Source: Escherichia coli
GTDB taxonomy: Bacteria > Pseudomonadota > Gammaproteobacteria > Enterobacterales > Enterobacteriaceae
Length of the DNA stretch: 19,380 bases
Strand: one strand, 5' to 3'
NCBI RefSeq assembly: GCF_003334355.1
Contig: NZ_QOWP01000048.1
Part shown: in pieces, positions 1 through 6,113 of the stretch
How positions within the stretch are numbered: the stretch's first letter is position 1
Layout: each line of letters starts with the position of its first letter
Made by a program: the position numbers and the translations under genes
The notes under the pieces: generated by a model
What the model saw: the letters and a program-made list of their open reading frames with translations, nothing else
What the model was told of the DNA's origin: nothing
The model's database searches: none

Positions 1-77
1 ATCTGATGGAAATGGAAGCCACGCAAGCACCTTAAAATCACCATCATACACTAAATCAGTAAGTTGGCAGCATTACC
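1..77 (-). mobile_element. IS1-family insertion sequence, terminal fragment (insA-proximal end, iso-IS1-like variant); element continues left of the window
   Basis: Reverse complement of 1-77 reads GGTAATGCTGCCAACTTACTGATTTAGTGTATGATGGTG...GTGGCTTCCATTTCCATCAGAT, i.e. an IS1 terminal inverted repeat followed by the GTG start and first codons of InsA (VASISI). Roughly 10 mismatches to the IS1 copy at 19203-19380, so a different isoform. Terminus at base 77. Confidence 0.85.
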
Positions 78-336
78 AAATTTTAATTACACTTAAGGTG
101 TATATTTTCTATGCAAGCCATCAATTAAAGAGGTGTAATGTGCTGATGACTATTTGTAATCGTTATACATTCTGACCTGGAGTCAGAAGGTATTTCTCTG
201 TCTGTGTATTCGCAGGCAGTGTGGTTGATTACATGAAATTCAGTACATTTGTCCTTCTCGCCTGCCTTTCGTCATTACCGACGGTATTGAATTTCGTTTT
301 CCCCATTGGGGTTCTCCGGACAAGGAGTTGTTTGTT

Positions 337-1569
337 ATGCCACGTTTTTTTGCCCGCCATGCCGCCACGCTGTTTTTCCCGATGGCGTTGATTTTGTATG
401 ACTTTGCTGCGTATCTGTCGACGGACCTGATCCAGCCAGGGATCATTAATGTGGTCCGTGATTTTAATGCCGATGTCAGTCTGGCCCCGGCTGCCGTCAG
501 TCTCTATCTCGCTGGAGGCATGGCATTGCAGTGGCTGCTGGGGCCGCTTTCCGACAGGGTTGGCCGCAGGCCGGTGCTGATTACCGGGGCGCTAATATTT
601 ACCCTTGCCTGCGCTGCGACAATGTTCACAACGTCTATGACACAGTTTCTTATCGCGCGTGCAATTCAGGGCACCAGTATCTGTTTTATTGCCACCGTTG
701 GTTATGTCACGGTGCAGGAGGCGTTCGGACAGACAAAAGGGATCAAGTTGATGGCGATTATCACCTCCATCGTACTGATTGCGCCGATTATTGGCCCGCT
801 TTCCGGCGCAGCTCTGATGCACTTTGTGCACTGGAAAGTCCTTTTTGCCATCATTGCGGTTATGGGTTTTATCTCATTTGTTGGCTTACTGCTGGCGATG
901 CCAGAGACGGTGAAGCGCGGCGCGGTTCCATTTAGCGCCAAAAGCGTCTTGCGCGATTTTCGTAATGTCTTTTGCAATCGGCTGTTCCTCTTTGGCGCAG
1001 CAACCATCTCTTTAAGCTATATCCCCATGATGAGTTGGGTGGCTGTCTCGCCGGTGATCCTGATCGACGCGGGCGGCTTAACAACTTCGCAGTTCGCCTG
1101 GACACAGGTTCCGGTGTTCGGCGCGGTGATTGTCGCGAATGCCATCGTGGCGCGTTTCGTTAAAGATCCGACCGAACCGCGCTTTATCTGGCGTGCCGTA
1201 CCCCTTCAACTGGTTGGCCTCGCGCTGTTGATTATCGGCAATCTGCTGTCACCGCACGTCTGGCTGTGGTCGGTGCTGGGCACCAGTCTGTATGCTTTCG
1301 GGATTGGTTTGATTTTCCCGACCTTATTCCGCTTTACGCTGTTTTCCAATAACTTACCGAAAGGGACCGTCTCCGCATCGCTGAATATGGTGATCCTGAT
1401 GGTGATGTCTGTCTCGGTCGAAATCGGCCGCTGGCTGTGGTTTAACAGCGGTCGCTTGCCGTTTCATCTGTTAGCCGTTGTGGCAGGCGTTATCGTCGTT
1501 TTCACCCTGGCCGGATTGCTTAATCGCGTGCGCCAACATCAGGCTGCCGAGCTGGCGGAGGAGCGGTGA
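337..1569 (+). CDS. mdtM: MFS multidrug efflux transporter MdtM (410 aa)
   Basis: 413-aa ORF 328-1569. AAGGAG at 322-327 with ATG at 337 (9-nt spacer), so the TTG at 328 is rejected. Multiple hydrophobic helices and the MFS motif-A-like [11 protein letters not shown]. Sequence recognised as E. coli MdtM/YjiO. Confidence 0.9.
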
Positions 1570-2890: not shown

Positions 2891-3005
2891 AAATCCATGA
2901 AAAACTAAGTGGCTAACCGCGAGAGAGATCAAATAAACCACACTAAAAGAATGGTAATAATGTGGCCTCTTTTCATTATCTCCCGTGGTACGGGGAAGGA
3001 AAATC

Positions 3006-6113
<3,108 letters not shown>

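Follow-up and report, generated by a model that had tools for sequence, protein, structure and literature searches.

An IS1 end at the putative promoter of the efflux gene mdtM in Escherichia coli and the conserved ytiE leader that follows it

IS1 upstream of mdtM and the DNA missing beside it

The DNA analyzed here (the window) is a stretch of 19,380 nucleotides from contig NZ_QOWP01000048.1 of the E. coli assembly GCF_003334355.1. It opens within an IS1 element, and its first 77 bases as displayed, ...CACTAAATCAGTAAGTTGGCAGCATTACC, are the left inverted repeat (IRL) and the start of insA in reverse complement, with the tip of the element (...AAGTTGGCAGCATTACC) at base 77. The IRL is the end of IS1 which faces mdtM, so that insA and the promoter of IS1 itself are directed away from mdtM. 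The original prediction had an IS1-like end at base 77, the start of mdtM at base 337 and a spacer of 259 bp between them, with all of which the sequence and the position of the ATG in RefSeq agree. In genomes that match the window at 100% over 700 bp, the RefSeq labels beneath the match are "IS1 family transposase" and "mdtM". The product of the gene, MdtM, is an export pump for chloramphenicol, quaternary ammonium compounds and bile salts which also aids alkaline pH homeostasis (PMC3668916, PMC4235344, PMC6599122). The features which frame the locus are as follows.

1 to 77, minus strand: IRL with the first part of insA, from a degenerate element of IS1F type (sequence, annotation of strain NCTC86, identity to IS1F copies)
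77/78, no strand: junction of IS1 and chromosome (alignment to K-12, ATCC 8739 and 2013C-3492, spacer counts)
337 to 1569, plus strand: intact mdtM, 410 codons and stop (list of open reading frames, RefSeq annotation in identical genomes)

In strain NCTC86 (L001, 11311-12077) the complete IS1 copy measures 767 bp; strains 300709 and W5-6 have it at 768 bp. The ends of the copy, GGTAATGACTCCAACTTACTGAT... and ...ATCAGTAAGTTGGCAGCATTACC, are those of an IS1 of ~768 bp with imperfect terminal repeats (GGTRATG...CCAACTTACTGAT), and the NCTC86 copy is 99% identical to IS1F-type copies versus ~90% to IS1A. An intact insA/insB' pair with programmed -1 frameshift was absent from NCTC86, 300709 and W5-6; in all three RefSeq annotates a pseudogene, worded either as "frameshifted; internal stop" or as "programmed frameshift; internal stop". 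This copy is a fossil and not an active element; in K-12, copies of the IS1F type transpose poorly or not at all (PMC12428005). Genomes carrying the allele of the window show between 12 and 40 IS1 matches per record.

Comparison with the IS-free genomes of K-12, ATCC 8739 and 2013C-3492 showed that the divergent rpnD-mdtM intergenic region spans 466-478 bp and that homology of the window to all three begins exactly at 77/78. The intergenic region has thus lost ~206-219 bp, together with all DNA farther upstream, which bears out the earlier claim that the native upstream region of mdtM had been cut. No target-site duplication of 8-9 bp was found, the left flank being ...CGCTGTCG and the right flank AAATTTTA, nor is one seen in the flanks written as ...CCTCGCTGTCG and AAATTTTAA.... 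On the other side of the NCTC86 IS1 lies the brnT-brnA toxin-antitoxin pair adjoining yjiA. Relatives that share this brnTA flank and lack the IS have genes for an Mrr-like endonuclease, hsdM, hsdS, hsdR, symE, yjiS, yjiR and rpnD before mdtM, and the left flank of IS1 stops 14 bp short of the endonuclease gene. Arithmetic combining the maps of the brnTA flank with ATCC 8739 puts the block absent from the IS1 allele at ~11.3 kb.

The missing target duplication and the ~11 kb which separate the two flanks in IS-free relatives rule out a simple insertion of IS1. IS1-associated deletions, after which direct repeats are usually absent (PMC9330008), are recognized by a single IS1 that lacks a target duplication and is joined to distant DNA, and the immigration control region to which these genes belong is known as a plastic and dispensable restriction island (PMC4444293). 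The ~11-kb block, comprising the endonuclease gene, hsdMSR, symE, yjiS, yjiR and rpnD together with half of the rpnD-mdtM intergenic region, was lost through such a deletion, for which intramolecular transposition and recombination of one IS1 copy with another are both candidate routes. The event resembles the adjacent deletions and the deletions by IS-IS recombination described for the immigration control region, in that one IS copy is left, the target duplication is missing, one flank is unchanged while the other is fused to distant DNA, and a hypervariable, dispensable restriction island is lost. It differs in that the endpoint at mdtM falls within a promoter spacer, with a potential regulatory effect on a neighboring core gene. 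Our search of the literature on the immigration control region, IS1 and mdtM found no description of this junction allele. A separate arrangement is seen in strain 720632 (NZ_CP025842.1, 2397638-2405563), where the brnT-IS1 and IS1-mdtM junctions are ~7 kb apart and in opposite orientation, from which two copies of IS1 and an inversion linked to IS1 are deduced for the mdtM locus.

The ytiE leader of mdtM

Bases 78 to 336, which the original prediction had taken for a truncated spacer, are for the most part not upstream regulatory DNA and instead form an intact, conserved and transcribed 5' leader with a translated upstream open reading frame (uORF), ytiE. The following elements were recognized in it, all of them on the plus strand.

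130 to 175: Shine-Dalgarno sequence GAGGTG (130-135) and uORF ytiE, GTG at 140 to TGA at 175, MLMTICNRYTF (K-12 annotation, literature)
165 to 193: hairpin 1, AUACAUUCUGAC / GUCAGAAGGUAU (inverted repeat, four pairs with compensatory changes)
198 to 219: hairpin 2, CUGUCUGUG / CGCAGGCAG (two compensatory pairs, 98% of cells paired)
226 to 249: nearly invariant block TTGATTACATGAAATTCAGTACAT (alignments, pair counts)
270 to 295: hairpin 3, CGTC...GACG (270-283), then GTATTGAATTTC (284-295) (inverted repeat, pair counts)
314 to 327: hairpin CUCC-N6-GGAG sequestering the Shine-Dalgarno sequence of mdtM (folding, ~92% of cells paired)

RefSeq annotates the 11-codon ytiE (b4823) in the leader of K-12, where it corresponds to bases 140-175 of the window once an 11-nt indel is allowed for. 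The uORF was found by Ribo-RET and Ribo-Api profiling; a ytiE-nLuc fusion gave strong activity in cells grown in LB, and a western blot showed the tagged peptide (bioRxiv 10.1101/2021.07.02.450978). Conservation was assessed on mdtM loci gathered from 50 species, with leader alignments of 21-22 sequences evaluated by RNAalifold and by explicit pair counts. The region upstream of mdtM could be aligned in Salmonella arizonae and diarizonae, in many Citrobacter species and in Yokenella, and a uORF of equal length and position is present in four genera; in Salmonella and Citrobacter it reads ML[IMN][VTI][TIL]CNR[YH]xF*, in Yokenella MLNTARNHNTF*. This conservation can be attributed largely to RNA pairing rather than to the peptide. 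In Citrobacter gillenii (L005, ~2900-3000) the TACACT promoter element discussed below and the Shine-Dalgarno hairpin are kept and ytiE with the structured core is deleted internally; in Klebsiella, Trabulsiella and Kosakonia (L020, L023, L036, L048) mdtM directly follows a yjiN-like gene and has no ytiE leader.

Hairpin 1 consists of TTCTGAC-N5-GTCAGAA and a lower stem, carries the stop codon of ytiE in its 5' arm and covaries across genera. The small palindrome which had been pointed out in the spacer does exist as part of this hairpin, but its 5-bp arms taken alone are not above chance, being found in 67% of dinucleotide shuffles of the region. A reading of hairpin 1 as a plain intrinsic terminator was rejected, the U-tract being present in E. 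coli only. Pairs with compensatory changes also occur in hairpin 3 (270-283). The nearly invariant block can pair in two directions: upstream with the start of ytiE (138-146 with 240-248) and with its codons 6-8 (155-162 with 226-233) in two long-range helices, or alternatively, through its bases 235-246, downstream with 284-295. In the 22 sequences 98-99% of the pairs form for either alternative, and each shows a single compensatory change, found in Yokenella only; covariation from this single lineage is suggestive of the predicted long-range helices. At the end of the leader the GGAG of the mdtM Shine-Dalgarno hairpin had an unpaired probability of at most 0.2 in all species tested, and it stayed sequestered in thermodynamic folds in which ytiE was masked to imitate its occupancy by ribosomes.

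Two open reading frames that overlap the block, one of 56 amino acids (221-391) and one from the ATG at 234 (MKFST...), were considered as a lipoprotein-like small gene and discarded: frame and length shift (15 to 52 amino acids) and the nucleotides are invariant. Since frame and length vary with the 11-nt indel and with the species while the nucleotides do not, the constraint appears to act at the level of RNA. The MKFST... frame (234-391) starts within the invariant block, its first five to eight codons are identical in nucleotide sequence in all genera, its length is 15, 18, 22 or 52 amino acids, and it has no clear Shine-Dalgarno sequence; its conservation probably reflects the RNA constraint, a second uORF being the alternative. 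As to the indel itself, the sequence at 248/249 in K-12, Salmonella and Citrobacter is TTGCAGTCTCG or one close to it, and the 11-nt insert extends the helix which pairs with the Shine-Dalgarno sequence of ytiE. Among mdtM-bearing E. coli ~3,214 have the short form (~80%, the allele of the window included) and ~815 the long form, independently of IS1.

Short leader peptides control a number of transporter and resistance genes, as in mdtU-mdtJI, toiL-topAI, ermCL and the cat/cmlA leaders. The ytiE-mdtM arrangement shares with them a short translated reading frame in a long structured leader, a stop codon lying in a hairpin, mutually exclusive helices and a sequestered Shine-Dalgarno sequence; like the attenuators of this class, it combines a translated uORF with conserved, mutually exclusive structures over that uORF. 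It differs from them in that folds with ytiE masked did not open the Shine-Dalgarno sequence of mdtM and in that conservation of the uORF is explicable largely by RNA pairing. Resemblance of hairpin 1 to a terminator is confined to E. coli. An Rfam scan of bases 1-700 of the window at a permissive E-value gave two snoRNA matches at chance level (E ~2), and a literature search on mdtM with uORF, leader or ribosome stalling returned no report. As a regulatory element the ytiE leader is undescribed, and it is more novel than the IS1 junction.

Alleles of the mdtM 5' region in complete genomes

Of 5,426 complete E. coli genomes, 448 (8%) have the exact right junction (window bases 20-140), which must therefore be a real, inherited allele. 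It is nearly clonal, many genomes showing 100% identity across 700 bp, and the intactness of mdtM in it is for this reason weak evidence of selection. The native promoter region was found in 3,562 complete genomes. In a further ~690 only the rpnD-proximal 50-70 bp are left, rpnD adjoins yjiN, and mdtM and its leader are gone; both mdtM-less genomes that were inspected (L057 and L058, ~4923-5108) carry an IS26/aph(3'')-Ib/aph(6)-Id resistance island just 3' of yjiN.

The left junction, between the brnT flank and IS1, occurs in 1,113 genomes, more than twice the count of the right one. The difference is accounted for by a sister allele in ~670 genomes, among them 300709 and W5-6, where the same IS1 (99% identical) with the same left flank is followed by a yghW'-'mdtM fusion. 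Between IS1 and mdtM stand 96 bp from the 3' end of yghX, the intergenic region that separates yghX from yghW, and ~18 codons of yghW (L060 and L061, 7889-8160), and yghW joins mdtM in frame at a CATGCCG microhomology near mdtM codon 7. This fusion allele has lost the native promoter, ytiE and the entire leader, in place of which stand the promoter and ribosome binding site of yghW; the native yghX-yghW locus is kept elsewhere in the same genomes. The 262-bp yghX-yghW piece was accordingly found at 6,093 places in 5,423 genomes, i.e., in ~670 duplicated copies, which agrees with 1,113 minus 448. MdtM of the fusion allele is 98% identical from residue 6 on, and this ~2% difference between the downstream haplotypes at the protein level suggests recombination with IS1 as a breakpoint.

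Taken over complete RefSeq assemblies, among which clinical clones are over-represented, the 5' region of mdtM is native in ~66%, carries the putative IS1 hybrid promoter in 8% and the IS1-yghW'-'mdtM fusion in ~12%, and the gene is absent in ~13%. In the lineages without the island two separate reconstructions of the mdtM 5' region have thus taken place, one with the ytiE leader kept and one with the leader discarded.

The putative promoter at the junction

Translation of ytiE in LB-grown K-12 means that an active promoter exists upstream of position 130. Neither mdtM nor ytiE has a transcription start among the entries listed in the supplements of Adams 2021, Ettwiller 2016, Kim 2012 and Cho 2014, and the candidates described here come from conservation and from a promoter scan.

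43 to 70, minus strand: promoter-like site of IS1 itself, CTGCCA-16-TATGAT, reading into insA (promoter scan)
64 to 69, plus strand: outward -35-like hexamer TTGGCA within the IRL (promoter scan)
88 to 93, plus strand: TACACT, -10 hexamer of the putative ytiE-mdtM promoter (cross-genus position; retained)
88 to 104, no strand: inverted repeat TACAC-TTAAG-GTGTA over the -10, holding the predicted SlyA site (sequence)

When the full rpnD-mdtM intergenic region of K-12 was used as query, homology with Salmonella and Citrobacter began ~16 bp left of the point where IS1 is joined and extended as far as mdtM. These 16 bp include TTGATT, and TACACT (88-93) lies 16 bp beyond it. The sole promoter-like element with a fixed position in all native sequences is TTGATT-N16-TACACT or a close variant of it (TTGAYT or TTTAAT, N16-17, and TACACT, with GACACT or TAAACT in a few Citrobacter), at a constant distance to the Shine-Dalgarno sequence of ytiE. 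This arrangement is found in Escherichia, Salmonella, Citrobacter, Yokenella and Intestinirhabdus. Yokenella and Intestinirhabdus retain the hexamers and their spacing, and the spacer sequence of Yokenella is unrelated; hexamers and spacing which are kept while the sequence between them differs are the pattern of a working -35/-10 pair. We infer that TACACT, which fits the -10 consensus at only four of six positions, serves as the -10. An E. coli-only element, TTTACA-16-GATATT, is located 48 bp farther upstream and could be the main native promoter; it is removed in the IS1 allele. The inverted repeat TACAC-TTAAG-GTGTA (88-102) is conserved in Escherichia, Salmonella and the C. amalonaticus/sedlakii group, is not found in the C. 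freundii group, and may be an operator. The only published binding prediction for the region is a SlyA site, TATACACCTTAA, which accompanied an EMSA of SlyA on a 400-bp fragment from upstream of mdtM which spans all of these candidate elements (PMC5797941); this site corresponds to window bases 93-104 on the other strand and is retained in the IS1 allele.

The junction falls within the 16-bp promoter spacer, 6 bp 3' of where the native -35 would end. The cut does not lie 260 bp away from the regulatory elements and instead separates the conserved -35, TTGATT, which is lost, from the -10, which is kept with all elements downstream of it. The broader suggestion that the IS end may rewire mdtM gains ground at the level of sequence, with the junction inside the putative core promoter and TTGGCA 18 bp from the -10, but its further point that operator sites may have been removed is weakened by the retained SlyA site.

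The inverted repeats of IS1 carry an outward -35 which forms a hybrid promoter with a -10 at the right distance, and documented cases are those of bla TEM-1, acrEF and afaA (PMC8764528, PMC9330008). The outcome depends on geometry, as shown by IS1 insertions upstream of genes in ST131 where afaA was strongly up, osmB down and ugd unchanged (PMC8764528). At mdtM, TTGGCA, the identity of which as the outward -35 box of IS1 is read from the sequence here, ends 8 nt from the tip of the element and 18 bp from TACACT, with which it makes nine of 12 consensus matches; the pair is the only plus-strand match near the junction in our promoter scan. TTGGCA matches the -35 consensus at five of six positions versus four of six for TTGATT, and a crude PWM built on consensus frequencies scored the hybrid TTGGCA-18-TACACT at 9.4 bits versus 7.7 for the native TTGATT-16-TACACT. 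On these grounds we lean towards the reading that the IS1 end forms a hybrid promoter which substitutes for the native promoter of mdtM. The right-hand endpoint of the deletion would lie inside the ytiE-mdtM core promoter and would have removed the native -35 and everything upstream of it; the IRL would then place its outward TTGGCA 18 bp from the retained TACACT, and the resulting promoter would most likely sustain transcription of ytiE-mdtM, with an output similar to that of the native promoter or departing from it to some extent. The base pairs of TTGGCA are also those of the -35 of the weak, divergent promoter of IS1 and lie within the repeat bound by InsA. This promoter, PIS1, overlaps the IRL partly and is repressed by InsA, which binds the inverted repeats (PMC12428005). 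From this overlap we infer that the hybrid, if it fires, is probably open to interference by InsA and by the back-to-back promoter of IS1 on the same base pairs.

It is rather unlikely, in our judgment, that the deletion instead crippled the promoter, so that ytiE-mdtM is transcribed poorly or not at all and this is tolerated as mdtM is dispensable. Several observations could be read in this way: both the native -35 and the upstream candidate TTTACA-16-GATATT are gone, the hybrid has a weak -10 and a suboptimal spacer of 18 bp, InsA from other IS1 copies binds the IRL and would cover TTGGCA (PMC12428005), the ~690 complete genomes devoid of mdtM and its leader would fit with dispensability, and the foreign promoter fused to mdtM in ~670 genomes is readable as a repair of lost expression. 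The greater likeness of TTGGCA than of TTGATT to the -35 consensus and the score of the crude PWM point the other way, as do the working IS1 hybrids of such geometry and the intactness of mdtM, ytiE and the leader in the allele.

Still less probable is that the IS1 end is a neutral bystander, with a promoter wholly to the right of base 78 and expression essentially unchanged. Such a promoter could use the -10-like TATATT at 101-106, 8 bp 3' of TACACT, with an activator or with no -35 at all. TATATT matches the consensus at five of six positions, is invariant in Escherichia, Salmonella and the C. amalonaticus/sedlakii group and stands beside the retained SlyA site, and the conservation to the left of the junction extends over only ~16 bp. 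TATATT however has no -35 partner (bases 78-83 are AAATTT) and no TGn extension, and it is degraded in Yokenella and in the C. freundii group, while TACACT and the -35 that pairs with it are kept at a constant distance. Even were TATATT used, the junction would lie at about -36, near enough to change contacts with an UP element or an activator. Read-through from within or beyond IS1, antisense to insA or from the side of brnT, we regard as very improbable. Plus-strand sites (TTGCCA-17-AAAAAT, TTGGAA-16-AATAAT and TTGCCA-18-GATTAT) do occur in the brnT-IS1 spacer and in IS1, at about the rate of shuffled sequence, but they are matches at the level of consensus only, six having been found on both strands where 2.5 ± 1.4 were expected. 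To our knowledge no strong, complete promoter that reads out of IS1 has been reported, and what the literature gives to the element is the contribution of a -35 only (PMC8764528).

If the IS1 hybrid reading is correct, the junction belongs to a family with known precedents, with which it shares the distance of 16-18 bp between a -35 in the IS1 repeat and a -10 in the flanking DNA, as in acrEF, bla TEM-1/TEM-6 and afaA; acrEF, like mdtM, codes for an efflux pump. It differs from these in that the -10 of mdtM is the conserved hexamer of the gene itself rather than a fortuitous one, so that the IS would replace an existing -35. The copy at mdtM also came with an ~11-kb deletion, and it is an old and defective element of IS1F type which is present in 8% of complete genomes and was not selected in the laboratory; the activity of its hybrid promoter is predicted from sequence. 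Fusion promoters of this kind generated by IS1 were reportedly described by Prentki et al. 1986. The IS1-mdtM promoter junction would be a fresh example of this well-known mechanism, and alleles of the ytiE leader in which it is either kept or removed occur naturally.

As a tentative extension, it is conceivable that the leader acts as a translation-sensing riboregulator, in which ribosome traffic on ytiE would pick the helix that forms and so set expression of the pump, and that ~20% of E. coli genomes have been rewired in two ways by one copy of IS1. In this speculative scheme the first type (A), represented by the window, would have undergone a swap of the -35, giving a possibly InsA-responsive hybrid with the switch kept, and the second (B) would have received a fusion to the yghW promoter and ribosome binding site with the switch discarded.

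The regulation of mdtM is almost unstudied, and the present analysis supplies for it a candidate core promoter and a conserved leader with a uORF. Resistance calls which list mdtM as "present" conceal very different regulatory contexts. Should the hybrid promoter prove active and sensitive to InsA, efflux expression would be tied to the IS1 load of the genome, and if the riboregulator reading is true, types A and B would amount to a comparison, set up by nature in major lineages of E. coli, of mdtM "with switch" and "without switch".
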